Positions 27,877-44,019 are shown, numbered from the stretch's first letter. The stretch: DNA of 48,176 bases from Alphaproteobacteria bacterium (GCA_051888155.1 JBJFAY010000153.1:1-48176); one strand, 5' to 3'. A program made the numbers and translations. Notes: generated from the sequence alone by a model not told the origin.

Positions 27877-28686
27877 ATGTTTTCATGCCGATTGAAAACC
27901 TGTCCGGTGTCTTTGCTGTTCAGATCCTTTTATGATAAATTGCTGGCTGAAGGATATATTCTTGCCGGACACGGAATCGGATTTTCTCCGTTGTTTGTGC
28001 TGGCGGTGTTGTCTGCTTTGGTCTATGCCGTTTATTCGATTTTGTTCCTGAATGCATTTTCTCCGGAAATAATTACTGAAAAAGTTGTGGATCTGCCGAC
28101 GATTGAAATCCGGGACGGAAAAATTGTCGAACCTGAAAACTTTTTTCAGCGTTTCGCCTTGGGAAACGGCATGCACCTGACTTTGGATACGACCGGAGAT
28201 ACCGAAATTATCAAAGATCCGTCTCCCAATGAAATTTATGTTTCAAAAGACGGAGTGCAGTTCGTTAAGGGACAAAAAGTTGAATTAATGCCGATCAGCA
28301 AGCTCTTGGGAACGGACAACATAACGATTACGGCGCAGAATATAACGGATTTTGTCAATAGAGCCACTGATGAAATGACATTCGTTATGCCGTTGTTCGT
28401 CTTTTTGATCGCTATACCGGTTTTGTTCCTTAAGTATGTTGTTTTGGTTTACATTCTGGCGCTGTTTTCATATATAGCGACATTGTTTTCAAAGGCTTCT
28501 CTTCATTTCGAAGCCAGAATGAGACTGGCGGCCGTTTCGGCGATTCCGGTGCTCGTATTTAATTTCTTTTTCGGAACATTGTTCGGGTTATTCGATTTAG
28601 GGGTAATCGCGGGGGTTATTATTACGTTGGTTTACCTTTATTTCTATATTTCCCAAATGCCGGTTCAACAGACGGCGGAAGAATAA
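27877..28686 (+). CDS. DUF1189-like polytopic membrane protein, paralogue 1
   Basis: 269 aa. AGGAGG RBS. N-terminal TM, extracytoplasmic block DLPTIEIRDGKIVEPENF (resembles the lP.F.i.nG.L block of DUF1189/MalA-like proteins), then 3-4 C-terminal TM segments. Same architecture as 28767-29552. Confidence 0.6.
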   Translation: MFSCRLKTCPVSLLFRSFYDKLLAEGYILAGHGIGFSPLFVLAVLSALVYAVYSILFLNAFSPEIITEKVVDLPTIEIRDGKIVEPENFFQRFALGNGMHLTLDTTGDTEIIKDPSPNEIYVSKDGVQFVKGQKVELMPISKLLGTDNITITAQNITDFVNRATDEMTFVMPLFVFLIAIPVLFLKYVVLVYILALFSYIATLFSKASLHFEARMRLAAVSAIPVLVFNFFFGTLFGLFDLGVIAGVIITLVYLYFYISQMPVQQTAEE

Positions 28687-28766
28687 CAAAACGATTTTCC
28701 GATTGCTAAAAAGAAACATTTGCGTGTACACTTTGTAACTGATTGATGTTGCAAACCGGAGCGCAA

Positions 28767-29552
28767 ATGTTTTCTTTTCTTTATCGTGTTTTTTATGACA
28801 GGACGTTGTTCGGATCGTTTGTTAAAAACGGTAAAGGTTATGGTTTAAAACCGCTGTTCGTCTTGACATTGTTCGCAGCGTTTTGCCTGTCGGTCAGAAT
28901 TTTTTTAATCTTTTGTGCCGTAACGCCGCAGCTGGTTGATCAGATCGCGGAACAACTGCCTGAAATCATTATTGAAAAAGGAAAAATTGTTTCTCCGGAA
29001 AATTATGAATATTCTTATGTCCTTGCGGATCAAAATGTCTTTTTTGTCTTTGATACGACCGAAAAACCCCTGAAGTTGAAAGATTTGCCGAAAAACGGCA
29101 TTTATATTACTTCTGATGCGTTAATTTCCGTTAATGCGGATAGAATCAGGCGGATTCCTTTTGTTCAACTGCTGAATGGAAAAAACTTGATTCTTAATCA
29201 AACGAATATGCGGCAGTGGGGAAATGAAACAATTTCTTTGTTTCGCATTATATTCCCGCCGATTTTGTTCTTTTTCAGTATTCCGGGGGTGTTGAGTCTG
29301 TATTTTCTGCTGTGTGTGTTTTATGCGGTTATTTCATACTTTATGACGCATATTACCGCAGACCGTCTGCAGTGGGATCAAAGAATGCGGCTGGCGGCTT
29401 TATCCGTTATGCCGGCTTGTATATTAAATGCCGTCGGCTTTTTGTTGGGCTGTTCTTTCCGGCTTAGCAGAATAGAAATCTTTATTACGTTGATTTATAT
29501 GTTCTGTTTTTTAAAAGACGGCCGTCGCACTGCGGCTTCCGGCGCTGATTAA
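28767..29552 (+). CDS. DUF1189-like polytopic membrane protein, paralogue 2
   Basis: ATG 28767 with a GGAG RBS (the track start at 28743 is a TTG). MFSFLYRVFYDRTLF... and QLPEIIIEKGKIVSPENY parallel paralogue 1. Confidence 0.6.
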   Translation: MFSFLYRVFYDRTLFGSFVKNGKGYGLKPLFVLTLFAAFCLSVRIFLIFCAVTPQLVDQIAEQLPEIIIEKGKIVSPENYEYSYVLADQNVFFVFDTTEKPLKLKDLPKNGIYITSDALISVNADRIRRIPFVQLLNGKNLILNQTNMRQWGNETISLFRIIFPPILFFFSIPGVLSLYFLLCVFYAVISYFMTHITADRLQWDQRMRLAALSVMPACILNAVGFLLGCSFRLSRIEIFITLIYMFCFLKDGRRTAASGAD

Positions 29553-29983
29553 AACAGTTCGTCTACAAATAAATACAACGCTTCCGAAAAAGTCGGAAAA
29601 CTGCAGCTGTCTGAAAAATCCAAACGGTTAATAATATGGTATTTTTGATCAATGCTGTCATAGACGAATAATTCTTCCGCTGCGCGCCCTAACAGCAGCT
29701 TTCCCCGCATCGGAGCCGCTTGCTGAAATTCCAGATTGGCTTCAATCAGTCCCGGCAGCGTATAACCCAGCGCTTCTCTGTCATTAGCCCGCGTCCCGTA
29801 TAATTCCACGCCGTTCCAGCTCAGGCCGTCCGTTTGTTTTAATAACGCAATATAATCTACGGGAACAGGCGGAAAACGGTGCGAAGACAGCAAAGAGCTG
29901 ATAAAACGCAGAGATCGTTCGTCTACAGGGTCAAAAAAAGTACCGTTGTCTTTTCTTAAAGTATTTAAAATTCTTGTCAGCAT
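29549..29983 (-). CDS. SMI1/KNR4 (SUKH)-like protein, putative immunity protein
   Basis: 144 aa. FPPVPVDYIALLKQTDGLSWNGVELYG ... LLLGRAAEELFVYDSIDQKYHII follows the SUKH-1 pattern (lP.dY..fl...nG ... l..fg..g...y.yd). Starts 4 nt after the HNH-like gene. Confidence 0.5.
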   Translation of the reverse strand: MLTRILNTLRKDNGTFFDPVDERSLRFISSLLSSHRFPPVPVDYIALLKQTDGLSWNGVELYGTRANDREALGYTLPGLIEANLEFQQAAPMRGKLLLGRAAEELFVYDSIDQKYHIINRLDFSDSCSFPTFSEALYLFVDELF

Positions 29984-29987
29984 TTCC

Positions 29988-31094
29988 CTAACGCCCCAAA
30001 GAAGATTTCTGCGCGATCATTTCAAACGTACTTTCCAAGAATCCGGCATAAACGCTTCTGTCATGACGGCTGGTTCCTCCGGAAGAGATTTCAATTTCAC
30101 CCGGGAAATAAACTTTTCCTTTCGGTGCAGGCAAAAATAACTTGCGCGGTTTAAAATTCGGCTGCGCCAGAGTCTGCATATCAAGGAATCTGTGGATTTC
30201 CGTATGAAAAGGGTGCGTCTGAATCAAAACCAGATTTGAAAAACTGTTTGTTCCGCCATAATCAAACGGAATACGGATATGGATATTGAAATTTTCGGGC
30301 GCTTTTCCTTTTTTGACCAGTTTAATTGCTTCTTCCGTCATGCCGGCGGCCAATAATTCATTTACATGATGATAACCGACATACTTTAAAAAATCGCGCC
30401 GGGTTCTTTTAAAAGCCTTGCGTAATTCCAGCAGCCAAGCGGAATCCAAGGGAACAAATTCGGCTTCAATCAAATCCATATTAACCAGTCCGGTTTGCTG
30501 AAACTGCCATTCCCACAAAGCTTTGTCTTCCTGTCTGGGGTCGGACATGACAGGCGTCTGCGCCGTTTGCGGCTGTTGCGCGGCATAGGGCTGGGCATAA
30601 GACTGAGGAGCTTGAGGCACATATGACTGATAAGACTGTGATGCCTGCGATCCGTATGGATGAGGCGCATACGGCTGCTGCGGATAAGGCATATAAGGCT
30701 GCGGGTGTCCCGGATAAGGCTGAGTCGCATACGGCTGTTGCTGCGGATAAGGCATGTAAGGCTGCGTCGGATAGGGCGTTCCCGCATACCCCGGCGGCGC
30801 CTGAGGCGGCATAACGGGACGCTGCTGGTATGGCTGAGATACAGGAGACTGTTGCGGATAAGATGGCGGTACGGCAGAATACGACGACTGAGGTGCCGGA
30901 ATATCCAGCGGATCCGGATAAGCCGACGCCGGCGCTGTCGGCGGTAAAGTTCTGTAAGCGCGGGAATCTCTGTAAATCGGCACGGGACGAATTTCACGGC
31001 GCACAGGCGTCACACCTTGATTCTGTGCTTCTTCTGCGGCTTCACCCCGTGAACGTACGGGCGGCGGTGTTTTAGTTCCCGACCAATCCCACAT
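29988..31094 (-). CDS. Bipartite protein: Pro/Gln/Tyr-rich low-complexity N-terminal half plus C-terminal HNH/EndoVII-like domain (putative nuclease toxin/effector)
   Basis: 368 aa. GGGGGA RBS. Residues about 45-185 are PYPQQ-type low complexity. Residues 270-305 read NIHIRIPFDYGGTNSFSNLVLIQTHPFHTEIH, which fits H-x3-P-x3-GG-x5-NL-x2-L...H-x3-H. Confidence 0.5.
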   Translation of the reverse strand: MWDWSGTKTPPPVRSRGEAAEEAQNQGVTPVRREIRPVPIYRDSRAYRTLPPTAPASAYPDPLDIPAPQSSYSAVPPSYPQQSPVSQPYQQRPVMPPQAPPGYAGTPYPTQPYMPYPQQQPYATQPYPGHPQPYMPYPQQPYAPHPYGSQASQSYQSYVPQAPQSYAQPYAAQQPQTAQTPVMSDPRQEDKALWEWQFQQTGLVNMDLIEAEFVPLDSAWLLELRKAFKRTRRDFLKYVGYHHVNELLAAGMTEEAIKLVKKGKAPENFNIHIRIPFDYGGTNSFSNLVLIQTHPFHTEIHRFLDMQTLAQPNFKPRKLFLPAPKGKVYFPGEIEISSGGTSRHDRSVYAGFLESTFEMIAQKSSLGR

Positions 31095-31128
31095 TTTTCC
31101 CCCGTTTCAAATATCCTGTTAAAAAGGA

Positions 31129-33447
31129 CTAGAACTTTTCATCAATAAAGTCGTCGTAATTTTCGTTATCGTATTCTCCTTCTTCCCCCTCATCTTCGTC
31201 GTCGTCGTAGCCTTCTTCATCTTCGTCGAAATCATCAATATCATATTCCTGATATTCTTTGATAAGTTCGTCCGTACTATCTTCTTCTTCCTCTTCCGCG
31301 ATATCTATCAATCCCTGCAATGCATTGACGTCCGTATCTTCACGCTGTGCGACAACCCAGTATGGCACGAACGGGGAAGGCGGAATATTACATTTTCTTG
31401 TCATTTCTTTGTCTAAAAACCAACGCGGCGCATCTGCCATAATCGGGCGGTTCATGAAACCTTGCATTAAAACGATTTGCTGCGTTGAAGGCAAAGACAA
31501 CATTTGCGAAGCGCCGATTACGGCCGTTCCCTGTAAAGAACGCGAAACGTTGGCCGAAAAAGGAGTCGCCTGTTTCGACCAACCTTCTGTTCTTGATTTC
31601 GAAGCGATTTCAACCGTTTTTGTCCCGATCATTTTTTCAAAACGCTGTGCGGTCTGTTCGTTGTTCTGTGACAAAATAATTTTAGCCGCCGTCGTGGAAA
31701 TAATCGTTTCCAAGTCGTCTTTTCCGTATTGGCCGGAAATTTGCCCCAAATCTTGCCCGATTAACAGATAAGACACTTTTTGACCACGCCCGACCGCCGG
31801 TCCGTCTTTTACTGCCCCCAATTTGGGCATTTGCGGAAATTCGTCGAGTACAAATAAAGTCGGAAACGGTCCGGTCATTGATCCGTCGCCTTGTTTGAAA
31901 TTCGGCGGATTAGCAATCAGGAAGTTACTCATCAATTCAACGAACGTGCCCGTAATAATATTCAAAGCGCGGGCGTCAACCTGGTTCACGGACAAATAAA
32001 TCGCAATGGATTTCATTTCTCCGGTAATCGGATCTTTCATACCGCGCAAATCTTTAAAAATAAAGTCGCTCATTTTTGTTCTGGAACGTACGGCAGAGTT
32101 TTTGAAAATACCGATACCGGTCAGCGCCGTTGATAAAATAGATCCGCGTTCTTTGTCCGGCGTTCCCGACAGTTGGTTTAATTCAACAACGGCACGGTGG
32201 GCGTAGCCGTATCGTTTACATTCCGCAACGGCTTGGTCCAGCATGTCGCGCATCGGGTCGGCCAGTGCGGCCATTTGATCGCCTTCTTCTGTCTTGCGTT
32301 TGATTTCCGCCGCCATTTGCATTTGCGCTTCGGTCAGCCAGTCCAAAATCATGGCAATACACGGTTCTGCTCCCACCCATGATTCCGGCAGCATTTCCCA
32401 TGTGCCGATCGGAACATAGTTGTTTAAATCCAGTGTGCCGTTGCGCAGGTGATCCAAAGCTTCGGCCGCGTCGGCGTCCGTCATGTCCATATAATATCCT
32501 TCAAGGACTTCGCGGTCTTTATCGTCCAGCTTTCCTTCATAAAGCTTTCCAATGAAGTAGTCATTAGCTCTGGCGCGTTCGCATTTACCGACAACGAAAT
32601 GAATAAAGCCGGTTAATGCATTTCGGCCGGTCTTTGCCCAGTGCGGGTCTGCCCCGCCTTTAGGTTCTTCGACCAAAACGTTGACCATGGAATCGACATA
32701 CATATCGCGTGCCGGGCCGAACGGAGGCAGACATGTACCGGACAACATATTCCAACTGGGATAATAAATTCCTTTTTCCGGTTCGTCTTCAGCCCCCCAG
32801 TTAATGACGAAAACAGGGCCGATAGTCTGTCTGTAACCGCTTGTTTTATAACATAATTCAGGCTTCGGGTCGTTTACGATGATGCTGATATTGTTTGATT
32901 CGAAAATTGTAGGCATAACGACGCCGACCGTTTTACCTGTTCCCGGAGGCGCCAGCACCAAAACGGACAATGTTTCCGGCAACCGCAACAACTTGCCGTG
33001 CCAGCGCCCCAAAACGACGATAAAACCTCTGAACAATCCCATTTTTTCAATATCTTTTTTAGTGGCAATGCGTCCTGAGCCATGAATGGTTGATAACCAG
33101 GAATGCGGATTTGTCACCAGTCCCGTTGTCAGAATAGCAAAAAAAGAAAAGAACGGGATTATCGGCAGCCAGAAATAAAAAGGCAGAGAACTATGCGCTT
33201 TAAAAGCTTTCATCAGCCATTTCCAATAAATATTCAGCAGGTACATATCCGTGGGATCGAAGCATTTTTTTGCAAAACGCCAAACCTGCAGCATATTATC
33301 CTGACTGATTCCCCGAGGAATCAGATTCGTCAGTGCAAAAGCAATAATCGCAAGCAGATAAGATACAACAAGAGCAAGCATGACCGTAACGACCACCCAT
33401 TGTATTGCGGCATCTCTTTCTGCCCATTCCTCTCCTTTTCTTGCCAT
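31129..33447 (-). CDS. virD4: Type IV secretion coupling protein (VirD4/TraG family) with highly acidic C-terminal tail
   Basis: 772 aa. N-terminal TM segments. HGSGRIATKKDIEKMGL, Walker A VLVLAPPGTGKTVGVVMPT, IVNDPKPE, Walker B LFVLDEFPQMPKL, LLIGQDLGQISGQYG. The last ~60 residues are almost entirely Asp/Glu/Tyr. Confidence 0.85.
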   Translation of the reverse strand: MARKGEEWAERDAAIQWVVVTVMLALVVSYLLAIIAFALTNLIPRGISQDNMLQVWRFAKKCFDPTDMYLLNIYWKWLMKAFKAHSSLPFYFWLPIIPFFSFFAILTTGLVTNPHSWLSTIHGSGRIATKKDIEKMGLFRGFIVVLGRWHGKLLRLPETLSVLVLAPPGTGKTVGVVMPTIFESNNISIIVNDPKPELCYKTSGYRQTIGPVFVINWGAEDEPEKGIYYPSWNMLSGTCLPPFGPARDMYVDSMVNVLVEEPKGGADPHWAKTGRNALTGFIHFVVGKCERARANDYFIGKLYEGKLDDKDREVLEGYYMDMTDADAAEALDHLRNGTLDLNNYVPIGTWEMLPESWVGAEPCIAMILDWLTEAQMQMAAEIKRKTEEGDQMAALADPMRDMLDQAVAECKRYGYAHRAVVELNQLSGTPDKERGSILSTALTGIGIFKNSAVRSRTKMSDFIFKDLRGMKDPITGEMKSIAIYLSVNQVDARALNIITGTFVELMSNFLIANPPNFKQGDGSMTGPFPTLFVLDEFPQMPKLGAVKDGPAVGRGQKVSYLLIGQDLGQISGQYGKDDLETIISTTAAKIILSQNNEQTAQRFEKMIGTKTVEIASKSRTEGWSKQATPFSANVSRSLQGTAVIGASQMLSLPSTQQIVLMQGFMNRPIMADAPRWFLDKEMTRKCNIPPSPFVPYWVVAQREDTDVNALQGLIDIAEEEEEDSTDELIKEYQEYDIDDFDEDEEGYDDDEDEGEEGEYDNENYDDFIDEKF

Positions 33448-33579: not shown

Positions 33580-34617
33580 TCAGTTTAATACGCTGGAAAC
33601 GCTGTGATACAGACTGTCATCAGGAGGCGAAACAGCGGAAACGGCACTTGGCAGCGCCGTAATTTCATCAGGGCCGCCCTCTTCGTGGCGGCAAACGATA
33701 ACATTCAGTCCGTTCCAAACCTCGAACATATCTTCCGCGTTAATGATCGTTCCCTGACGAATAATAACCATCGCTTTGATTTCCATGCCGTTAGCCGCTC
33801 CGCTGAGCATGGGACCCAAAGCGTCACGTGCGTTCAAAATGACGCGAACCGGAGAAATACGGTGATTACTTTCGGAAAACCATAACGGTTCTTCATCATT
33901 AAATCTTTCTTCGTCCGCCAGCCAGTCTCCGCTTTCCGAATCAATTAAACATAACAGAATGTGACTGGCGGAAACAGCGACAAAGTCGATTTTCTTTCCC
34001 GCGATTTTAGCATCGGAAATCAGCCTGTAACCGGCCGAACGCAAAACGTCCATAATGGAATTGCCCGCAATGGAAGATTCTGCCGAACTACGTTGAGCGG
34101 CGGGAGCCGTCTCGTGTGAACGTTCAACAACCGGAGCAGCCGCTGCAGCCGGCAAAGTTTCCTTTTCTTTTTCCGGCGCTTTTTCCGGGTGTTTAATGCG
34201 GCCTGATCCGGCTCTGACCGCAGGAGGACGGGTTTGTTTATAAGACTTCTTTTTAGTAACTTTCGGTCTGGCGGCGTTCTTTTCTTTTTTACGTTCTTTT
34301 GATTTGCTTACTATAAATCTGATCGGGAACAACAAGATAATTTTAAACCATTTGATCCATGGAACCGCACATAAAACGGCCCACCCCGTAAACCAAAGCG
34401 GCAACATTGCAAACAACGCAATGACAAACAGCCATTCCCGTACGGACTGGATTACCCAGCCGTTTTGCCATTCATTCCAGATATAAATCCAATGTACTTT
34501 GGACATCGGATTGAATCCCCACATGGCAATCATCAGGCGCTGAAACCAAAAGAAATATCCGATTGTCCAGACAAATAAAATGAAAAAAATTCGTGAAACG
34601 GCAAAGATTATTTTCAC
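33580..34617 (-). CDS. Hypothetical membrane protein with NERD-like C-terminal domain, paralogue A
   Basis: 345 aa. GTG start at 34617 with a GGGAGA RBS. N-terminal TM module with HWIYIWNEWQNGWVI, a Lys-rich linker, and C-terminal KIDFVAVSASHILLCLIDSESGDW...ISPV. Confidence 0.6.
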   Translation of the reverse strand: MKIIFAVSRIFFILFVWTIGYFFWFQRLMIAMWGFNPMSKVHWIYIWNEWQNGWVIQSVREWLFVIALFAMLPLWFTGWAVLCAVPWIKWFKIILLFPIRFIVSKSKERKKEKNAARPKVTKKKSYKQTRPPAVRAGSGRIKHPEKAPEKEKETLPAAAAAPVVERSHETAPAAQRSSAESSIAGNSIMDVLRSAGYRLISDAKIAGKKIDFVAVSASHILLCLIDSESGDWLADEERFNDEEPLWFSESNHRISPVRVILNARDALGPMLSGAANGMEIKAMVIIRQGTIINAEDMFEVWNGLNVIVCRHEEGGPDEITALPSAVSAVSPPDDSLYHSVSSVLN

Positions 34618-34638: not shown

Positions 34639-35742
34639 CTATGCGCCATTTTCCGTTTCCATTAAATCGAGAATTGCCACGGCTACAGCGTCGTTCAAAG
34701 CCTGTGAAGACGCCGGCTGGGATTTTATATATTCAATTAAGGCATGCGTGTCTGGCAAAGAAGCCGTTTGACACGACCCCATACGTAAAACGGAAATGTC
34801 CCAAGTTTCCAAATATTTCAACAGTTCGTCGGGATTTGTAACATTGCCGTGATCTAAAATCATGCAGCAGTTGACATCTAAACCGGAATACTGCGGCATT
34901 TTTTCCGCAAAATATTTTTGTAATACGGCTTTTGCTTCGATCAAAGGCCGCAGCGGTGAGGGAATCGGCGCCGTTTCTGTTTTCCATACGGGCGGTTCCG
35001 CAGCTTCATCTATTTCCCAGGAACGCCCGGCTGCCGGCCCTTCGCACAGCAAAAAGACTCCTTCCCGCGTAATGGCAAAAGTATTGACCGAAAAATTTTT
35101 AATTTTCATTTGACGCAAGATAAAAATCTTCTCGGTTTCCAAAGATTGAACCAATTTTTCCCATAAGTCGAAGCGGGCGACGGCTTCATCTTCTTTGGAC
35201 AGTATTTTGCCCGTTGAGGTGGACGGGGCGGCGGTGCCGGTTTTCGCAGCGGCGGATTGTGCCGTTATAGCATGCTGTACGCCGGCTTTTTTGCCGCGCA
35301 GCTGATCAATATGCTGTAATTTTTCGGCAGAAATTTTAATTACTTTTTCCGGCTCTTTTTTCTTAGACAGTACTTTTTGTTTGTCGGCGGGACCGACTGC
35401 CGCGGCCAGCGACTGCGCCTGAAGCCGTTCTTTTTTCTTTTTTTCAAGATAGGTCAGCGGCAGGCGGAAAAATTTCAGCCAAGGAAACACATACACCGTG
35501 AACCATGTCAACAGAAATCCGGGGATCAATAACAGAACGGCAATAAAAAACAACACTTCTTTGGGTTTGTGAATTACCCAGCCACCCCGCCATTTGTTCC
35601 AGATATGCGTCCAATGGCGTTCGGAAATCAGGTCGAAATTCCAGAAGAACAGAAAAATTCCGCGGGCGATAACATAAAAAAGAACGGCGCCGACAACCGC
35701 AGAAAAAAGAAGACGGATAAAATGTATTTTCCCTTTTTTCAT
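34639..35742 (-). CDS. Hypothetical membrane protein with NERD-like C-terminal domain, paralogue B
   Basis: ATG 35742 with an AGGA RBS (the track start at 35766 is a TTG). HWTHIWNKWRGGWVI motif, a Lys-rich linker, and VNTFAITREGVFLLCEGPAAGRSWEI. Same architecture as 33580-34617. Confidence 0.6.
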   Translation of the reverse strand: MKKGKIHFIRLLFSAVVGAVLFYVIARGIFLFFWNFDLISERHWTHIWNKWRGGWVIHKPKEVLFFIAVLLLIPGFLLTWFTVYVFPWLKFFRLPLTYLEKKKKERLQAQSLAAAVGPADKQKVLSKKKEPEKVIKISAEKLQHIDQLRGKKAGVQHAITAQSAAAKTGTAAPSTSTGKILSKEDEAVARFDLWEKLVQSLETEKIFILRQMKIKNFSVNTFAITREGVFLLCEGPAAGRSWEIDEAAEPPVWKTETAPIPSPLRPLIEAKAVLQKYFAEKMPQYSGLDVNCCMILDHGNVTNPDELLKYLETWDISVLRMGSCQTASLPDTHALIEYIKSQPASSQALNDAVAVAILDLMETENGA

Positions 35743-35801
35743 GTGACGATCCTGTAATTTGAACAATTAAATATAGAATATAAAACTATTCGGGCAAATG
35801 T

Positions 35802-35846: not shown

Positions 35847-36977
35847 TTATCTTCCCGCATTTTGTTTTTTGCGTGCCGGAACCATGGAATTTCCCTGCTG
35901 GCGAGATTGCGGCCGGCTTTTTTTCCGGGCGATATTTTTCATCTGGGCTTTCAGATTAGAAAACATTTTTAGGTTGGCCTTCTGTTTCAGCTTTTTTACG
36001 CCTTTTTGATGGGCTTGTTTAACCTTATTTGTAATTTTCTTTTTCTGATCTCTGGCTGCCAGACCGGCTGCCTTTAAACCGATTCTCGCTTTCTGGACGG
36101 CTTTTTGCCCCTTTGTTTTTTTCTTGATGTCTCCGTCAACAATTTTATTGTTAACGCCTGTTTCTTTTTGCATGGCCGCCAAGGCTTTTCTGTCGCCGAC
36201 CAATTCAGCTCTTGCTTTGCGTCCTTCCGGTGATTTTGCATAACCGGGGATAGTGGCGACATTCTTACGGTAATCCGCCTCACGCTGTAAAGATTCTACC
36301 GTCATCTGATCATACGCCTGCTGGTTTTTACCCAAAGCGGAATTGTCATAATTCCGGTTAGCCATATTTTTTTTGGCTTTATCTGCCAGATCCTGAGCCT
36401 TTTGCGCTTTAAGATCGTTTCTTTCCTGCTGAGAAGTCTTTGCGGGCTTTTCTTTATCTTTTCCGGACTTGTCTTTGTTGTCCTTATCTTTTCCCGGTTT
36501 ATCTTTATCGGCCTTATCTTTATCTTTACCGTCTTTGTTTTTTGTCTTTTTTTTGTCTTTATCGTCGCCGAGTTTTTGTTTTTCTTTTTTCTTGTTGATG
36601 AATTCAACACCCTTATTAAGTCCTTTGTCGATGTAGTAACCGACAAATTCCAAATTGCCTAACATCCAATTCCGCAAATCGTTCTTAAGAAATTCAATCA
36701 ACCATTTTGCGGCGTCATCTTCATTGTTTGTCTCTAGCCATTTATAATCCGGTCCCTTTTCTTTGTCTTTTTTTTCATGGGCTTTGGCATGGAAAGAGCC
36801 GACTTTCCCCTGCTGCTGTTCCTGTTGCTGTTCAGCCGTATATTCGCCGGCTTTCTCAGGAGTGGCAGTAAAATTTCCTTGTTCTGCCGTATTCTCACCA
36901 GTCTTCTGAGGCGTGGCAGTAAAATTTCCTTGTTCAGCTGAAGTTTTTTCCTGTTCTGTTTTTTCAATTTCTGCCAT
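35847..36977 (-). CDS. Lys/Asp-rich low-complexity protein with basic C-terminus (hypothetical; candidate secreted substrate)
   Basis: 376 aa. AAGGAGA RBS. Two 17-aa repeats AEQGNFTATP(Q/E)K(T/A)GE(N/Y)T, a KDKDK-type tract (about 36438-36590), and a C-terminal ~60 residues rich in Lys/Arg. Confidence 0.6.
   Translation of the reverse strand: MAEIEKTEQEKTSAEQGNFTATPQKTGENTAEQGNFTATPEKAGEYTAEQQQEQQQGKVGSFHAKAHEKKDKEKGPDYKWLETNNEDDAAKWLIEFLKNDLRNWMLGNLEFVGYYIDKGLNKGVEFINKKKEKQKLGDDKDKKKTKNKDGKDKDKADKDKPGKDKDNKDKSGKDKEKPAKTSQQERNDLKAQKAQDLADKAKKNMANRNYDNSALGKNQQAYDQMTVESLQREADYRKNVATIPGYAKSPEGRKARAELVGDRKALAAMQKETGVNNKIVDGDIKKKTKGQKAVQKARIGLKAAGLAARDQKKKITNKVKQAHQKGVKKLKQKANLKMFSNLKAQMKNIARKKSRPQSRQQGNSMVPARKKQNAGR
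36828..36938. repeat. 51-nt (17-aa) tandem repeat inside the Lys/Asp-rich protein gene
   Basis: ggcagtaaaatttccttgttc... recurs with a 51-nt period. Protein repeat is AEQGNFTATPxKxGExT x2. Confidence 0.75.
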
Positions 36978-38414: not shown

Positions 38415-40595
38415 ATGAAGAAAAATAAGGGTGAAAATAAAATCGTATTATGTATGCTCTTGCTTGCATGTCTTTTAAGTGTCATGCCTGTTGTTCCTTC
38501 TCAGGCGGGCTGGTTGGATTTCGGTTGGCAAACGGAGGAGTTTACAAAGGATGAAAATAAACCGGCTGATGAACAATGCAATCTGTTAAGAGATGTAGAA
38601 GAGGCTAAAAATAAGGGGAAGTGGTGGAAGACGCCATTGGAAACGGCTCTCAAGGCCTCGCTTTCGGTTGGTAAAACCGTATCTGAGAAGGCTGCGCCGG
38701 GTGCTCAAAAGTTGATGTTTGTCGGTGCGGGATTGTGGCTGGCGGTATTTACGTTAAAGGTTGTCGGCAGTATGGTGGAATCCGATCCGAGGGAGAATTT
38801 GACAAAGGTCGGCGGCATGATGCTGAAAGTGGGGTTTGCTGCCGCCTGTTTGTCTAGCATAGGGGGGGGGGAGAAGCTATATAGCAGCTATTCCTTTTTT
38901 GATGTGGCGATTGCTTCAGTCGTTGAAGCTGGTGCGGGGTTTGTTGACACAAGCGACATTACCGGAGTAGACGGCGCGGTTAAAATGGGTAATGTAAAAA
39001 TTGGCGGTGGCTTAGATGCTGTTGAAAAGGTTTTGATAGACATGGCTGAGGAAACCCATACAATTATCGCCGATGTTATAGGAAGGGGAAGATTCCTGGG
39101 GTGTATCGGGGATATTCATAAACTCAGCTTAAGTGTAGCCGGTGATGTAACGTTCCCGGATCCCAAGGTTTGGATGTCGTCCTGTGTTATTGTTGTGGGG
39201 GCATACTTCTTTTTATTTTTATTCCCGTTCTATTTAATTGAAGTGTGTGTGCGTCTGGGAATTGTGGTCGCTTTATCTCCTTTGTTTGTCGTTGCCTGGG
39301 TTTTTGATGTGACAAGAGAGTTTACTAAAAAAGGAGTTCAGGCCTTATTGCACGTGGCGTTTACGTTTATGATGATTAAAATAATCGTTCTTGTCGCAAC
39401 TAAACTGTTAATGGGCGGAGCCGGTTTGGATAAGCTGAAGACGGGCGGTTTAGATGAAAAAAAACAAATAGTGTGTACTTTCAGATGGGGCTATTTAGGG
39501 GACGATGACGTCTGTGAAGGCGTAGAAAAAGGCGAAACAAACAATATGTTTATTTATTTGGCCTGCATTGTCTATGGTTGGCTGTTGTTGTCAAAAGGCA
39601 ATGAACTGGCAAATTATTACAGTAATACAAATTTCTCTGCAGATTCGTCTTTTGCAGCGGCAAGAAATGCAGGGCAAATGGTTCATAAGGCGGCTCAGAC
39701 AGGGGTAAATAAAACTATTAACGCGGCCGGTGCGGTAAAAGACCGGATCCAGACTCATAAAGACCGTGCGGCGGCGCGCACATATGAAAAAGACCAGCGG
39801 GCTCGCGCGGCGGCGGCAAACGGCGGTCCGGCGTATAATCCGTCTGCTAAGCAGCTGAAAAAAGTTGAAGCGGCTAAGAAACGTCTGCAAAGCGAACGTG
39901 TCGGGGCTTTAAACAGCGACGGTACGGAAAATGGTCAAAAGATGTCTAAACTGCTTGAAAACGGTAAAGCCAGAACGGCAATGCGCGGTCTTGAAAAAAT
40001 TCATAACGCTACTGTCGGTCGTTTAGCGGATAAAGTAGGGATTTCTAAATTTGGTCAAAAGCTTTCATCGAAAGCGTCGTATCAGGCAAAGAACGGCAAT
40101 TTCTTTGAAAGACAGGCCGGAAAAATTGGAAACAGGCTCGGTAAGGATATTCAAAATATAGGAAGCCATGACAAATATAAAAATATGGGCAGCTCTTACA
40201 GTGAACGTAGTGCGGAGCAGCTGCAAAATCTGAAATCTGTCGCGCCGACAGGGATAGCGGATGTCAACGAACGAGATGTTAGCTTGGCTAAACAGAGAAT
40301 GGCTAACATGCCTCCGCCAACTACAGAGCAGGAAAGGAAACAGCAATTCTATAATCAAGCAAAATTGTTGCATCAGGAAGACGTGCTTGATTACAATAAA
40401 AAAGTAGCGGCAGATCCTAATTATGCCAATTCTGTTGCGGGTCAGAAAGCAATGCAAAAAATGACTCAGGATAACTATGATTTGCAGCAATATAAGAATG
40501 ATAACGGGGTAAACGATGATCTTTTCAAGAGTAAAACTGCTAAAGAAAAATGGAATACAGTTAAAGGAAAGGTCAAATCTGCATTTGGAGGCTGA
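38415..40595 (+). CDS. virB6: VirB6/TrbL-family T4SS inner-membrane protein, paralogue 1, with ~330-aa hydrophilic C-terminal extension
   Basis: 726 aa. Signal peptide. AQKLMFVGAGLWLAVFTLKVVG and VVALSPLFVVAWVFDVTREFTKKGVQALL parallel A. tumefaciens VirB6 as I remember it (LLAIGPLILVGYIFDRTRDIAAKWIGQL). Multiple TM segments. Lys/Asn/Gln/Ala-rich tail. Confidence 0.75.
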   Translation: MKKNKGENKIVLCMLLLACLLSVMPVVPSQAGWLDFGWQTEEFTKDENKPADEQCNLLRDVEEAKNKGKWWKTPLETALKASLSVGKTVSEKAAPGAQKLMFVGAGLWLAVFTLKVVGSMVESDPRENLTKVGGMMLKVGFAAACLSSIGGGEKLYSSYSFFDVAIASVVEAGAGFVDTSDITGVDGAVKMGNVKIGGGLDAVEKVLIDMAEETHTIIADVIGRGRFLGCIGDIHKLSLSVAGDVTFPDPKVWMSSCVIVVGAYFFLFLFPFYLIEVCVRLGIVVALSPLFVVAWVFDVTREFTKKGVQALLHVAFTFMMIKIIVLVATKLLMGGAGLDKLKTGGLDEKKQIVCTFRWGYLGDDDVCEGVEKGETNNMFIYLACIVYGWLLLSKGNELANYYSNTNFSADSSFAAARNAGQMVHKAAQTGVNKTINAAGAVKDRIQTHKDRAAARTYEKDQRARAAAANGGPAYNPSAKQLKKVEAAKKRLQSERVGALNSDGTENGQKMSKLLENGKARTAMRGLEKIHNATVGRLADKVGISKFGQKLSSKASYQAKNGNFFERQAGKIGNRLGKDIQNIGSHDKYKNMGSSYSERSAEQLQNLKSVAPTGIADVNERDVSLAKQRMANMPPPTTEQERKQQFYNQAKLLHQEDVLDYNKKVAADPNYANSVAGQKAMQKMTQDNYDLQQYKNDNGVNDDLFKSKTAKEKWNTVKGKVKSAFGG
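38862..38871. repeat. G(10) homopolymer inside virB6 paralogue 1
   Basis: ata-GGGGGGGGGG-agaag encodes ...SIGGGEK.... Confidence 0.9.
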
Positions 40596-40689: not shown

Positions 40690-42297
40690 ATGTTAAGACA
40701 TAGAATAACATTTTTAAAAAAGAGCGATATCGCACGTTTTGTGTGCGTACTATTCCTTTGCCTTTGTTTAGGAATGCTGTGCGGTTGTGAAGATACTGCT
40801 CCTAATTCACATTCGCAGGGGGAACTGGCGGTTGCTGCAGAAAAGGAAACGCTGAACTGCTGGACATGTTCGCTTTTTAAATTAGGGTTTGGTGTTGCGA
40901 ACAGTTTGGCAACGAGCGTGGTTAAATCTGTCGCCGGCAGTGCGCTTTCCCTGCTGGCGGTCGGTTACGGATTATGGCTGGCTGTATATATTTTAAAGCA
41001 GGTTTCTTCAATGCAGGCGCCGGATCCCGGAGCTTTTTGGAAAGGACTGGCCGTACAGACGTTTTTTGTTACGCTGGGAGCCGGAATGTTGCGGGATTTA
41101 TCCGGAGAGGGAGAATCTTCCTCGTCTGTTCTGGAAATGATCGTCAAACCTATTTTTTCCGGTTTTGTTGATGTCGGATTATTGGTTGTCGGCGGCTTTG
41201 GGGATCTTCCCTGTTCTGCAGGAGGGGATCCCGGCGTCGGTATGGAGTGTCTGGTTGAGGCATTGCAGCAAAAACTGAATGTCGGAGTCGCTTTTGCTTA
41301 TCTTAACGCAACGACCGGGCCGACAATTTTCAGTATTATTCTGGGGGTCATTGTTTATTGTTTTTTCATCTACATGATGCTTTATTTCCCGCTGTTGTTG
41401 CTGGATTGTGTGTTCAGGTATTGCATTGTTCTTGCAATGTTGCCTTTAAGTGTGACGGCCTATTGCTTTAAATGTACGCGAGATTTTGCGACGCAAACCG
41501 TAAAGCTTTTAGTGGAAATCGGTTTGGGTATTACCGGTATGTGCGTTTTTATTGCGGTCGTTGTTGAAGTTGTTCGAGAATATATTGATACTTTTTTACC
41601 ATACATTCAAAATCCGACTTCTCTTTTAAGCGATCCGATGATGCTTGATAAAGCTATACAGGGACCGGGCATGACAGGACTGATGTTTGTGTTAACTTTC
41701 CTATGCATTTTCGGCGGCGTGGTTCTTGAATTGATGGAAAATTTCTCTCAAGGTATGGGTGGACTGGGAAGTACGGTCAAAGAAACCATTGGCGCTTTCA
41801 AGGGGGGGGCCGCTATGGCTAAACAGTTAGGCAAGTTTGCGGTCAACCGGAGAGCCAGAAAAAATGACGCCAAAGCTAAAAAGACAAAACAAGCTTTGGA
41901 AGCGAAAAAAGCCAGCGGAAAAACACTGTCGAAAGATGAACAAAAAGCTCTGGATAAGGCGAACGGTCGTTTAATGTTTCGCGGTTATTTGGCTCAGGAT
42001 AAAAACGGTCACATGTCGCAGGACAAAGGAGCCAGTCTGCATAAAACAAAAGCTTATGACAACTTGGGCAAAGGCGGTGTTAGAAATGCTTTGAAAAATT
42101 TGTCGGAAGATTGGAACAGCGATGTAATGGGCAATGCTTCGCGTCATGATCACAGCCATAACAAAGTTTCCGAAGAAGGTTTTACAGGGGATTTGAAAAA
42201 GGATAATTTGGTAAATGATATGTATGGAGATAAGTCTCTGAGGCAGCGCATGGGAGACGGCCTGAAAAAGGGAATGAAAAATCTTGTAGGCGATTAG
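40690..42297 (+). CDS. virB6: VirB6/TrbL-family protein, paralogue 2 (lipoprotein-like signal), with ~170-aa basic C-terminal extension
   Basis: 535 aa. LGMLCGC lipobox-like signal. CWTCSLFKLGF motif. LLAVGYGLWLAVYILKQV. VLAMLPLSVTAYCFKCTRDFATQTVKLL. Confidence 0.72.
   Translation: MLRHRITFLKKSDIARFVCVLFLCLCLGMLCGCEDTAPNSHSQGELAVAAEKETLNCWTCSLFKLGFGVANSLATSVVKSVAGSALSLLAVGYGLWLAVYILKQVSSMQAPDPGAFWKGLAVQTFFVTLGAGMLRDLSGEGESSSSVLEMIVKPIFSGFVDVGLLVVGGFGDLPCSAGGDPGVGMECLVEALQQKLNVGVAFAYLNATTGPTIFSIILGVIVYCFFIYMMLYFPLLLLDCVFRYCIVLAMLPLSVTAYCFKCTRDFATQTVKLLVEIGLGITGMCVFIAVVVEVVREYIDTFLPYIQNPTSLLSDPMMLDKAIQGPGMTGLMFVLTFLCIFGGVVLELMENFSQGMGGLGSTVKETIGAFKGGAAMAKQLGKFAVNRRARKNDAKAKKTKQALEAKKASGKTLSKDEQKALDKANGRLMFRGYLAQDKNGHMSQDKGASLHKTKAYDNLGKGGVRNALKNLSEDWNSDVMGNASRHDHSHNKVSEEGFTGDLKKDNLVNDMYGDKSLRQRMGDGLKKGMKNLVGD
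41802..41809. repeat. G(8) homopolymer inside virB6 paralogue 2
   Basis: ttcaa-GGGGGGGG-ccgct encodes ...FKGGAA.... Confidence 0.9.
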
Positions 42298-42359: not shown

Positions 42360-42575
42360 ATGTCCAAGTTAAAACAATATATTGTTTTTGGCGGGTTATT
42401 GTTTCTTTTTCAAATGGATTCTGTAAAACGAATTTTTCAGTCGCCGTCTTTTTTGAATACGGTTTTGGGGGGTATCGGGATTTTATTGGTTATAGCGGTG
42501 ATTATAACAATTTCTGCTCAAAAACGTCAAAAAAAGCAGAAAGAAAATGAAGACGATAGGGCTTCAATATTATAA
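42360..42575 (+). CDS. Small 2-TM membrane protein (hypothetical)
   Basis: 71 aa. AAAGGAG RBS. Two hydrophobic segments (IVFGGLLFLF and VLGGIGILLVIAVIITI) and a basic/acidic tail. Confidence 0.55.
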   Translation: MSKLKQYIVFGGLLFLFQMDSVKRIFQSPSFLNTVLGGIGILLVIAVIITISAQKRQKKQKENEDDRASIL

Positions 42576-42591
42576 AGGAAGGTTTTGGCAA

Positions 42592-44019
42592 ATGACGAAA
42601 CATGTTACGTTAAAACGATTAGTGATCGGAGTGCTGCTGTTTTGCGGCGTGTTTGCCTATACTTCCATTCATTCCGCTCATGCTTTCAGCATTTATGATA
42701 AGAAAATGGAAGACGTTTGCGATTCATGGTCTCAGAATATGCAGGACTATCAAGGGCAGGAACATTGCTGGACATGTCAGATTTTCGTACTGCTTTTTGA
42801 TGCTGCCAACAAAGCGGCCGGACAAATTAACAATGCCTTATCGCCTCCAATTATGAAAGCTGTTGTTACTCTTTGTTCGTTATGGCTGGCCATTCACACG
42901 CTGATTTTTTTCAGCGATGTGGGGAGCGCTCCTAATTTAATGGCATTTTTAACAAAAATCGGGGGTATGATGATCCGGGTCGGGTTCGGTTATGCCCTCT
43001 TGGCCGGCGGGGCTCAGCTGGCTTTTGATTATGTTATCAATCCTGTTTTGACAGACGGGGCAAAATTGGCGACAACTGTTTTGTCAACGACGGGACTTTC
43101 CCCGGGGTGTGAATTTACTTCCAGCGGCGGCGGTTCGCCGACAAGCGGGCCGATGGGGCAAGAGGTACGCGAATCTTTGAAATGTATGATTGAAAAAATT
43201 GCTTCCGGCATGGCGCGCAGTCAGTCAATCGCACAAGGGTTGCGTTGCGGTGCAATGTTTTACGATTTCGGATTCCTTAATCCGTTCCCGCATCCGGGCA
43301 TGTGGATTGTAGGGGCAACTTTTGGGTGCTTTTTCTGGTTTATTTCTTTCCTGTTCCCGTTGGTTATGCTGGACGTTATTTTCCGGATCGGATTAATGGC
43401 CGGTATGCTGCCGTTGTTTGTCGCGGCTTGGATTTTCCCGATTACGGCCTCATATGCAAAAAAAGCATGGGATATTTTCTTGCAGTCTTGTCTTGTTTTC
43501 GTCGTAACGGGGCTGATTGTTTGTATACTTGTGGCTCTGGTTGACCAGTCTTGGGGAGCCGGCGATCAGACGATCATAAATGCTTTTCAGCAGAAAATGG
43601 AAGCTAACCAATATACAGATGCATGGGACGAGCTGTTTTCCGGCGGAGTCGGCAGAGGATTGGTAAATTTATTCCTGGTGCTGTGCGTTTGCTTCTGGGG
43701 CGTAGGCATTGCTTCTAAATCAGACAAAGTGGCAAATGAGTATGTGGGAGAAGGAAAATATCCGGACAATTGCGCGGTTAAGGCCATTGAAGCAATAATC
43801 AGTTTTATTTTTGATGTGATTATGGCGGTTATTACAATTCTTACTTTTGGCGCGACGTCTTGTCTGTATCTTTTCAAACTCGGTAAATATATGTCCGACA
43901 GTGCGAGAAAGCTTCAGGAAATTATCAGGCATCTCAGAAGGATAAAAGAAAAAGTACAAAAAATTCAGCAAAAAATGCAAAAGCTTCAGAAGGTGGCTTT
44001 CCATCAACGGGATAAATAA
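42592..44019 (+). CDS. virB6: VirB6/TrbL-family protein, paralogue 3
   Basis: ATG 42592 (MTKHVTLKRLVIGVLLFCGVFAYTSIHSAHA signal) follows an AAGGAAGG RBS. CWTCQIFVLLFD motif. TLCSLWLAIHTLIFF. MAGMLPLFVAAWIFPITASYAKKAWDIFL. The track start at 42547 overlaps the small ORF. Confidence 0.72.
   Translation: MTKHVTLKRLVIGVLLFCGVFAYTSIHSAHAFSIYDKKMEDVCDSWSQNMQDYQGQEHCWTCQIFVLLFDAANKAAGQINNALSPPIMKAVVTLCSLWLAIHTLIFFSDVGSAPNLMAFLTKIGGMMIRVGFGYALLAGGAQLAFDYVINPVLTDGAKLATTVLSTTGLSPGCEFTSSGGGSPTSGPMGQEVRESLKCMIEKIASGMARSQSIAQGLRCGAMFYDFGFLNPFPHPGMWIVGATFGCFFWFISFLFPLVMLDVIFRIGLMAGMLPLFVAAWIFPITASYAKKAWDIFLQSCLVFVVTGLIVCILVALVDQSWGAGDQTIINAFQQKMEANQYTDAWDELFSGGVGRGLVNLFLVLCVCFWGVGIASKSDKVANEYVGEGKYPDNCAVKAIEAIISFIFDVIMAVITILTFGATSCLYLFKLGKYMSDSARKLQEIIRHLRRIKEKVQKIQQKMQKLQKVAFHQRDK

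Follow-up and report, generated by a model that had tools for sequence, protein, structure and literature searches.

A candidate domesticated pseudo-nuclease/SUKH pair tied to the type IV coupling protein VirD4 in gut and rumen Alphaproteobacteria

Main Finding

The stretch of DNA analysed here (hereafter, the window) comprises 48,176 nucleotides from an Alphaproteobacteria bacterium (GCA_051888155.1, JBJFAY010000153.1:1-48176). On its minus strand, a gene for the type IV coupling protein (T4CP) VirD4 is followed by two small open reading frames (ORFs) that encode (i) a 368-aa protein whose C-terminal domain is related to HNH nucleases; and (ii) a 144-aa protein with a SUKH fold (Table 1). These components are of kinds already known, i.e., a His-Me finger domain of the YhhZ group, a YrhA/SUKH protein and a VirD4. 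Our preferred reading, which is put forward tentatively, is that the two small genes encode a domesticated pseudo-nuclease/SUKH pair that would be a dedicated client of the coupling protein, its nuclease-derived member binding rather than cutting and acting as a core substrate of a type IV secretion system (T4SS). An earlier annotation of the window (the original prediction) had proposed a toxin-immunity pair delivered by a T4SS: of this proposal, the homology to toxin-immunity cassettes and the linkage to virD4 stand, but the general base of the nuclease is absent and the pair is not polymorphic.

The three genes lie on the strand, at the positions and with the spacing originally described. 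The stop codon of virD4 is separated from the ATG of the 368-aa ORF by 34 nt, with a GGGGGA ribosome-binding-like site inside, and the stop codon of the latter from the ATG of the 144-aa ORF by 4 nt. A G-rich ribosome-binding-like stretch precedes both downstream starts, and a scan of either gap found no terminator-like site.

Descent of the Pair from a Toxin-Immunity Cassette

The 368-aa protein as a whole has no match in Pfam, NCBIfam or PADLOC, and its C-terminal domain taken separately has none in the curated libraries (Pfam, NCBIfam). Searches of PDB sequences, using both the single sequence and a profile, gave weak matches to the pyocin AP41 DNase (E = 0.1), Cas8f-HNH and the HNH of a group II intron maturase, all of them on one motif. 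Alignment A2, which covers residues 190-368, was made into a profile; run against 1.84 billion representatives, it found 714 proteins at E <= 1e-3, 441 of them at E <= 1e-10. Among these are proteins in which the domain forms the C-terminus behind PT-HINT, PT-TG, MuF_C or Mu-portal modules and in which Pfam HNH is matched weakly; such combinations are classical polymorphic-toxin architectures.

The same profile matches residues 253-384 of YhhZ from Escherichia coli K-12 at 67.6 bits. YhhZ consists of a type VI secretion system (T6SS) Hcp domain plus an HNH domain, and defines group 32 of the His-Me finger classification (Jablonska et al., 2017, PMC5714182). In E. coli K-12, yhhZ is directly followed by yrhA with a 4-nt overlap, and YrhA is the founding member of the family which contains the 144-aa protein. 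PMC6730261 summarises experiments (Ma et al., 2017) which showed that the Hcp-HNH fusion Hcp-ET1 of Shiga-toxin-producing E. coli acts as a DNase effector of the T6SS and has a cognate immunity protein; what it shares with YhhZ is the architecture.

The 144-aa protein scores 62.4 bits against the NCBIfam YrhA family NF038335 (cut-off, 55), compared to 122 bits for YrhA of K-12 and 124.6 bits for YrhA of an IncHI2 plasmid. Weak matches to the Pfam families SUKH_6, SMI1_KNR4 and SUKH_5 appear in some orthologues only. Its AlphaFold2 (AF2) model, built with 16 orthologues, has a mean predicted local distance difference test (pLDDT) of 88.9, and the best three PDB matches of this model in Foldseek are 3d5p, 2icg and 2pag (probability 0.99-1.00, template modelling score 0.57-0.71). 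The first is annotated as SMI1/KNR4 family, and the other two are SUKH structures as well. Syd, a protein that binds SecY, is found at rank 16 of the same matches. The NF038335 score above cut-off and the SUKH structures at the top of the Foldseek matches support membership of the 144-aa protein in the YrhA family with a SUKH fold, in line with what had been predicted for this ORF. Matches to pseudoazurin, the sole result of a search of PDB sequences with the family profile of the 144-aa protein, were set aside as chance.

For the nuclease-related domain, the AF2 model is less confident (pLDDT 68.8), with a strand at 80-84, a second strand at 99-103 and a helix at 104-119 (domain numbering), and Foldseek against the PDB gave nothing below E = 1, HNH entries being among the weak matches only. 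Since the model is moderate and has no significant structural match, the call of an HNH fold rests on sequence profiles. Both proteins, then, have the profile similarity, HNH-type and SUKH-type respectively, that the original prediction had expected of them. The HNH-like motif that it quoted is present as a string, and spans residues 270-301 instead of 270-305.

Both genes are homologous, and in the same order, to YhhZ-CT and YrhA, and it is this double homology which shows that the pair descends from a YhhZ-CT/YrhA-type toxin-immunity cassette, of a kind validated by experiment. Nothing else supports the original prediction as strongly.

Loss of the Catalytic Histidine

In colicin-type HNH DNases, the two consecutive histidines at the end of strand 1 are, in this order, a metal ligand and the general base (H102/H103 in E9, H544/H545 in E7). 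This agrees with the description of the superfamily in PMC5714182. In the window protein, N-I-H272-I273-R-I-P aligns with E-I-H-H-V-V-P of AP41 and with N-V-H-H-K-L-P of canonical relatives, and from these alignments H272, H297 and H301 are equivalent to the metal ligands and N287 to the loop Asn, while Ile273 takes the general-base position. Hence, of the HNH/EndoVII pattern originally proposed, the metal ligands H272, H297 and H301 are indeed present but the general-base His (the first H of HNH) is replaced by Ile273. In the VirD4-linked clade, this position is occupied by I, L, V or M, and rarely by Q or R. In the orthologues, H272, N287 and H301 are invariant, and H297 is nearly invariant.

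A census of the best representative proteins provided 149 scorable domains. Those with the general-base His (n = 100) keep H1 in 98 cases, N in 100, H3 in 78 and H4 in 44; the corresponding figures for those lacking it (n = 49) are 43, 47, 38 and 39. A neighbour-joining tree could place 47 of the base-less sequences, and 43 of these form one pure clade; the four outliers are an 'HRK' protein and three extra, degenerate copies carried by multi-domain proteins. As shown by this topology, the general base was lost once, in the ancestor of the clade. Some members of the clade have also lost metal ligands (P0088, P0109, P0162, P0169, P0175 and P0199).

A separate kind of decay is seen in P0092, P0095, P0116, P0133 and P0177, which carry two or three copies of the domain per protein. 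Their N-terminal copies are degenerate (e.g., 'VRHIKP', 'IRRVIP') and their last copy is canonical, i.e., the active site has decayed independently within one protein.

Two residues were considered as possible substitutes for the missing base. The first, H242 in a GYHH motif, is near-invariant in close orthologues and is not conserved in the wider clade. The second, Tyr279 in the omega loop, would be a catalytic Tyr of the PacI type, and is Phe in the short relatives, which make up a large sub-clade. Both were rejected. In the His-Me superfamily, the catalytic His is nearly invariant, and groups that have neither this His nor a Tyr substitute are deemed inactive binders, as is the case for the Smad MH1 domain and the ENPP nuclease-like domain (PMC5714182); the Tox-GHH domain of teneurins is another inactive precedent (PMC3482391). 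Due to Ile273 and to the absence of the general-base His from the whole VirD4-linked clade, it is doubtful that the 368-aa protein contains a working HNH DNase. As the catalytic His is missing, the domain is referred to here as HNH-derived and not as an HNH nuclease.

These data bear directly on a first alternative, namely that the 368-aa protein is an active DNase toxin sent by the T4SS into competitors, with the 144-aa protein as its immunity protein and with catalysis relying on a metal-bound hydroxide or on another residue. We consider it unlikely. It would fit the homology of the pair to a proven kind of toxin-immunity cassette, the immunity-type gene located 4 nt downstream, and the strict retention of the metal ligands and the Asn, counted as stricter than in the canonical class. 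Besides, PacI is a His-Me nuclease that functions without the His (PMC5714182). Against this alternative stand the I, L, V or M found at the general-base position across the clade, the failure of both Tyr279 and H242 as clade-wide substitutes, and the additional loss of metal ligands in the six clade members listed above. The way in which the pair evolves also has a bearing on this alternative (see Mode of Evolution).

Linkage to virD4

A scan of one genome per species provided 35 loci (L001-L035), all of them from gut or rumen alphaproteobacterial metagenome-assembled genomes (MAGs), and related records likewise correspond to uncultured gut or rumen Alphaproteobacteria (e.g., 'Acetobacter sp. 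CAG:977'). Two of these loci, L016 and L031, hold the full alphaproteobacterial module under the names 'Limosilactobacillus gorillae' and 'uncultured Lactobacillales', most likely as a result of binning or contamination errors. The gene order virD4, HNH-derived gene, yrhA-like gene is kept in 35/35 loci, the most divergent of which share with the window about 60% identity in VirD4, 40% in the domain and 29% in YrhA. A fourth gene, encoding a 345-aa membrane protein, lies upstream of virD4 in 34 of 36 cases (window plus L001-L035), the exceptions being L011 and L032, which begin inside virD4; it is also found there in those metagenome loci that reach far enough.

When nine further loci and 23 metagenome loci (the latter set coming from a separate alignment) are added to the 35 genome loci, the contexts read for the base-less form amount to 67, with a GC content of 29-50%. 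A YrhA gene directly follows in all of them, bar one in which the contig ends at the gene, and virD4 precedes wherever upstream sequence exists. Distant base-less representatives that could be traced to contigs (P0097, P0102, P0115 and P0084) show the same arrangement. The sole exception to direct adjacency is L058 (1501-4450), with about 3 kb between virD4 and the HNH-derived gene. The base-less clade is thus found only directly after virD4, in a four-gene module (67 loci read; one with an insert), and the linkage of the pair to virD4 that had been noticed in the window is real and conserved across the loci read.

The canonical HH relatives whose context was read are, on the contrary, never beside virD4. 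The canonical YhhZ-YrhA pair resides on the E. coli chromosome, and a canonical HNH-YrhA pair with traG and trhH as neighbours occurs on 458 plasmids (433 predicted to be conjugative); the IncHI2 type was established for the one plasmid examined among the 458. This example, p39 of E. coli (NZ_MT077886.1; L051, 6329-7906), encodes an 'HNH endonuclease' of 353 aa and a 'YrhA family protein'. The pre-toxin region of the plasmid HNH protein resembles that of YhhZ. The plasmid pair may be a plasmid-borne toxin-immunity pair. There are also short, stand-alone canonical HH proteins, often as tandem paralogues (L045, 89-1483; L047, 6001-6561; L049, 69-1211); they are found in housekeeping contexts, near rpmI or near rpoN and phosphotransferase system (PTS) genes, and have no adjoining YrhA-like gene.

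Since canonical relatives are located elsewhere and the base-less clade lies after virD4, the loss of the base and the capture by virD4 coincide. A second alternative would be that the pair is unrelated to secretion, i.e., a toxin-antitoxin-like addiction or defence module that sits beside virD4 by chance. Toxin-immunity cassettes are mobile and able to land anywhere. A chance neighbourhood is very improbable, given (i) the adjacency to virD4 kept in 67 loci over such a range of GC content; (ii) the tight spacing, with no terminator-like site in either gap; (iii) the absence of any PADLOC match; and (iv) the fact that the canonical relatives that behave as free cassettes never occur beside virD4.

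Mode of Evolution

In 36 orthologous sets, the pairwise distances of VirD4, the HNH-derived domain and YrhA are correlated with r = 0.94-0.95 (domain versus VirD4, r = 0.95), and the partial correlation between domain and YrhA given VirD4 is 0.55. Relative to VirD4, the domain evolves at 1.45 times the rate and YrhA at 1.86 times. VirD4, the domain and YrhA have median ratios of nonsynonymous to synonymous substitution rates (dN/dS) of 0.09, 0.11 and 0.10, respectively. The domain is basic (median isoelectric point, pI, 9.1) and its partner acidic (median pI 4.9). This opposite charge and the partial correlation lend indirect support to a binding and neutralisation of the domain by the 144-aa protein. 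Taken together, the high correlation of distances and the low dN/dS argue for vertical inheritance under strong constraint.

Exchange of C-terminal domains and orphan cassettes, by which polymorphic toxins are recognised, were not found: all 35 species have orthologous C-terminal domains, and the chimera P0036 is the only case of exchange. P0036 comes from a 1114-bp metagenome contig; its linker and the first half of its domain are almost identical to those of the window protein, and its beta-beta-alpha core has been swapped for a canonical 'NVHHKLPIHGGG' HNH, which is the sole sign of cassette swapping. Unlike cassette-swapping toxins, the pair passes on vertically, experiences strong purifying selection and is not polymorphic. 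As regards the original prediction, a polymorphic toxin-immunity pair is not supported: the pair is single-copy at the locus, inherited vertically and with a dN/dS of about 0.1, like VirD4.

With regard to the active-toxin alternative, strong purifying selection on the partner is what would be expected if the toxin were still dangerous, and a basic domain with an acidic partner is reminiscent of DNase-immunity pairs. It is opposed by the lack of polymorphism, the lack of orphan modules in the window, the vertical inheritance and the low dN/dS, all of which are unlike toxins engaged in an arms race.

Terminal Motifs of the 368-aa Protein and Acidic Tail of VirD4

The ATPase domains of a T4CP are present in VirD4 (Pfam T4SS-DNA_transf, 4.8e-56; TraG-D_C, 4.1e-20; TrwB_AAD_bind, 1e-17), and the NCBIfam VirD4/TraG models match it below their equivalog cut-offs. 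After its WVVAQRE motif, the protein ends in a tail with 36 Asp and Glu (D+E) in 69 residues; an acidic tail had been part of the original description, and 37 of the last 75 residues are indeed D+E.

The 368-aa protein starts with MWDWSGTK, which distant VirD4-linked relatives with linkers of unrelated sequence keep as MW[DE]W..K. MW[DE]W occurs in 19/49 base-less representatives versus 0/100 canonical HH representatives. A second short motif, ASAYPDPL, is invariant among close orthologues and was likened by eye to the SLLxAYDDLL of short relatives (AYxDxL). No N-terminal trafficking domain of a known type was found in Pfam or NCBIfam.

VirD4 orthologues with an MW[DE]W neighbour have an acidic tail (13-53 D+E; L001-L074), whereas in those whose neighbour lacks MW[DE]W the tail is short and weakly acidic. 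This co-occurrence hints at a contact between the VirD4 tail and MW[DE]W, or at their co-evolution, and is confounded by phylogeny. There is precedent for docking on the tail of a T4CP, as the acidic tail of TraD of the F plasmid binds TraM; similarly, IcmS, IcmW and LvgA sit on DotL as adaptors.

In a third alternative, the pair would not be exported, and would instead form, with the 345-aa protein, an accessory or adaptor sub-complex of the T4CP which regulates or broadens the recruitment of substrates, in the manner of TraM/TraD or of IcmS/IcmW/LvgA on DotL. The four-gene module is invariant down to about 60% VirD4 identity, which is more typical of a machine part than of an effector, the selective constraint on the pair is close to that on VirD4, and the acidic tail co-occurs with the N-terminal motif. 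Furthermore, SUKH proteins are protein-binding modules, with Syd as a structural relative. By contrast, Pfam, NCBIfam and PDB-sequence searches revealed no homology to known T4CP adaptors, the pair evolves 1.5-1.9 times faster than VirD4, and a disordered linker of variable length together with conserved terminal motifs is also typical of secreted substrates. We regard this alternative as somewhat unlikely.

Linker and C-Terminal Extension

The original prediction correctly located a tract of extreme composition at residues 45-185 of the 368-aa protein, where Pro, Gln and Tyr (P/Q/Y) amount to 57% versus 14% in the remaining protein. Its view of the tract as an N-terminal module is not supported, since the tract is a lineage-specific linker, short or absent in relatives. 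Among orthologues, 14 to 275 residues precede the domain; the part that separates the motifs from the domain amounts to anything between almost no residues and over 200, and is P/Q/Y-rich in this lineage only. Because its length varies and its P/Q/Y richness is confined to this lineage, the tract is best read as a lineage-specific disordered spacer and not as a module with a separate function. The ideas of a repeat array and of a conserved module were rejected, as no DNA tandem repeats exist in the tract and both its length and its composition vary. Overlapping ORFs within it (e.g., 30470-30997) were taken as by-products of low-complexity sequence.

At the opposite end, the C-terminal extension has invariant or near-invariant residues at G339, G340, D345, S347, V348, A350, G351, F357, G367 and R368 and, despite this conservation, is modelled by AF2 with low confidence. 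It is missing from the short relatives (which end in GKIYHD) and from YhhZ-type toxins. The extension has no match in Pfam, NCBIfam or PDB sequences; the original prediction had not seen an XVIPCD domain either, for which these libraries may lack a model.

Comparison with Known Systems

The closest counterpart of the window pair is YhhZ/YrhA: the genes are homologous, in the same order and tightly coupled, and the partners belong to the same family, NF038335. But while YhhZ has a canonical VHHK and an N-terminal Hcp for the T6SS, the window protein has Ile at the base position and MWDW followed by a disordered linker; and while YhhZ/YrhA is sporadic, the window pair neighbours a T4SS coupling protein and is vertically conserved.

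In 2011 and 2012, Zhang, Iyer and Aravind reportedly described polymorphic toxin systems in which the toxin has an HNH C-terminus and the immunity protein is of the SUKH type. The window pair resembles them in its C-terminal HNH-type domain, in the SUKH-fold gene immediately downstream (4 nt; an order kept in all the loci that extend past the domain gene) and in the presence of the same domain behind PT-HINT, PT-TG and MuF modules. It departs from them in that it shows no C-terminal variability and no orphan cassettes, is under purifying selection and has lost the catalytic His.

In the bacteria-killing T4SS of Xanthomonadales (X-T4SS), effectors and immunity proteins form X-Tfe/X-Tfi pairs, with recognition by VirD4. 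By analogy, the window pair may share this effector-plus-immunity logic. Nevertheless, its conserved terminal features are other than those of X-Tfe proteins, its putative toxin domain lacks the catalytic base, and no XVIPCD-like domain was detected in the libraries used, which may lack a model of it. In Bartonella, VbhT/VbhA is a FIC toxin-antitoxin module that a T4SS has taken on as its substrate, and VbhT is catalytically active. The analogy here would be the co-option of a toxin-antitoxin pair by a T4SS; VbhT/VbhA, however, is FIC plus BID, while the window pair is HNH-derived plus SUKH. Concerning the IncHI2 plasmid pair, it is homologous and likewise adjoins conjugative transfer genes (traG and trhH); unlike the window pair, it has a canonical VHHK and another N-terminal region, and adjoins, on the opposite strand, an F-type TraG and not the coupling protein. 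Lastly, Smad MH1, ENPP and the teneurin Tox-GHH domain have in common with the window protein an HNH-derived fold which lost its catalytic His, in their case being kept for binding (PMC5714182; PMC3482391). They are eukaryotic, whereas the window protein is bacterial, retains an immunity-type partner and the metal ligands, and is tied to a secretion ATPase.

Proposed Mechanism

According to the reading that we tentatively prefer, a YhhZ-CT/YrhA cassette would have become a permanent companion, passed on vertically, of a chromosomal T4CP. Its 368-aa member has retained H272/H297/H301 and N287 and has lost the general base; it would have kept its fold and gained short linear motifs at its N-terminus (MW[DE]W, AYxDxL); in this lineage it would additionally have gained the long disordered P/Q/Y linker and the conserved C-terminal extension. 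Most likely, it would bind nucleic acid or another partner without efficient cutting. The 144-aa protein would be the cognate partner that grips the HNH-derived domain in the producer cell, as immunity protein, chaperone or both. VirD4 would recruit the complex of the two proteins, with its own acidic tail and the 368-aa protein's terminal motifs as plausible contacts, and the 368-aa protein would then be passed to the T4SS as a conserved core substrate. The physical interactions, the translocation and the activity of the 368-aa protein in a recipient are the steps that we infer here.

Several observations weigh against this reading. Known T4SS signals are usually C-terminal, and it is at this end that the short relatives have no counterpart of the conserved extension. 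The association of the acidic tail with the N-terminal motif is confounded by phylogeny. The strict retention of all metal ligands and of the partner would also suit an enzyme that still needs neutralisation. Finally, the domain model is moderate and has no significant match in the PDB.

A further proposal, to which we attach a rather low probability, goes one step beyond: a toxin-immunity cassette would have given rise to a permanent coupling-protein sub-complex, in which the 345-aa protein and an acidic-tailed VirD4 would be joined by the SUKH protein and by a pseudo-nuclease that binds metal and has docking motifs and a disordered linker.

Other Genes of the Window

The coordinates of the module and its parts are given in Table 1. 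The remaining window is ordinary chromosome, with polA, flagellin, a copper ATPase, ABC transporters, DNA repair genes and two tRNAs.

Table 1. Position of virD4, the pair and the associated membrane proteins in the window.
Feature	Position (nt)	Strand	Evidence
VirD4, type IV coupling protein, 772 aa	31129-33447	minus	Pfam matches
Acidic C-terminal tail of VirD4, residues 704-772, ending YDDFIDEKF	31132-31338	minus	composition
368-aa ORF, HNH-derived protein	29988-31094	minus	ORF scan, family alignment
N-terminal motif MWDWSGTK, residues 1-8	31071-31094	minus	family comparison
Second short motif ASAYPDPL, residues 56-63	30906-30929	minus	alignment
P/Q/Y-rich low-complexity linker, residues 45-185	30540-30962	minus	composition
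HNH-derived (His-Me finger) domain, about residues 199-334	30093-30500	minus	profile homology
Beta-beta-alpha core, NIH272-I273-RIP ... N287 ... H297 ... H301	30180-30287	minus	AP41 alignment
Conserved C-terminal extension, residues 335-368, ending ...SGGTSRHDRSVYAGFLESTFEMIAQKSSLGR	29991-30092	minus	alignment
144-aa ORF, YrhA-family SUKH-fold protein	29549-29983	minus	NF038335, AF2, Foldseek
345-aa membrane protein, fourth module member	33580-34617	minus	synteny upstream of virD4
375-aa membrane protein, paralogue of the 345-aa protein	34639-35766	minus	20-25% identity; syntenic in most close relatives

The 345-aa and 375-aa proteins each consist of N-terminal transmembrane segments, a linker rich in Lys, Ala and Pro, and a C-terminal domain. 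The former has a conserved motif, GDWLADEERFNDEEPLWFSE, which is near-invariant as GDWLADEERFNDEEPLWFSE(S/T)(N/S)HR, and has no credible family or PDB match; a faint REase_MTES_1575 match was obtained at E = 0.078, and matches of its C-terminal domain to designed ankyrins were rejected as spurious. Further upstream, on the minus strand, a 376-aa protein (35847-36977) has an extreme content of Lys, repeats of the KDKDK type and a segment, 'EQGNFTATP(Q/E)K', that is present twice. In close relatives it keeps its place upstream of the virD4 module but evolves fast (32-75% identity), and it has no family match.

On the plus strand, tandem DUF1189 paralogues (27877-28686 and 28743-29552) converge on the 144-aa gene, the stop codons overlapping by 4 nt; the copy number of DUF1189 differs among related loci, with up to four in L023. 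Also on the plus strand are three consecutive genes for large membrane proteins (38415-40595, 40690-42297 and 42547-44019), which form a set of weak VirB6/TrbL-like paralogues; two of them give weak TrbL/VirB6 matches (E = 2e-4 and 9.8e-3). VirB6 genes in multiple copies and T4SS genes in scattered places are reminiscent of the rvh layout of Rickettsiales. Genes for VirB4, VirB8-11 or a relaxase were not found within the window.

Significance

The searchable literature, including a recent survey of Rickettsiales rvh effectors, contains no description of a virD4-linked base-less HNH/SUKH module, and literature searches found nothing specific on a T4SS in RF32-type gut Alphaproteobacteria. If the preferred reading is true, a nuclease toxin and its immunity protein would have been jointly domesticated and wired to a secretion ATPase, an event for which a single loss of the catalytic His would provide the date. 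Should the permanent sub-complex be true instead, it would represent an undescribed type of T4CP receptor or adaptor in a widespread uncultured lineage of gut and rumen Alphaproteobacteria. For annotation, the lesson from this pair is that, when "HNH + SUKH next to a secretion gene" is encountered, the catalytic residues should be checked before the protein is annotated as a weapon. For the abundant uncultured Alphaproteobacteria of the gut and rumen, the pair is a first concrete candidate for a core substrate or an accessory of their chromosomal T4SS.

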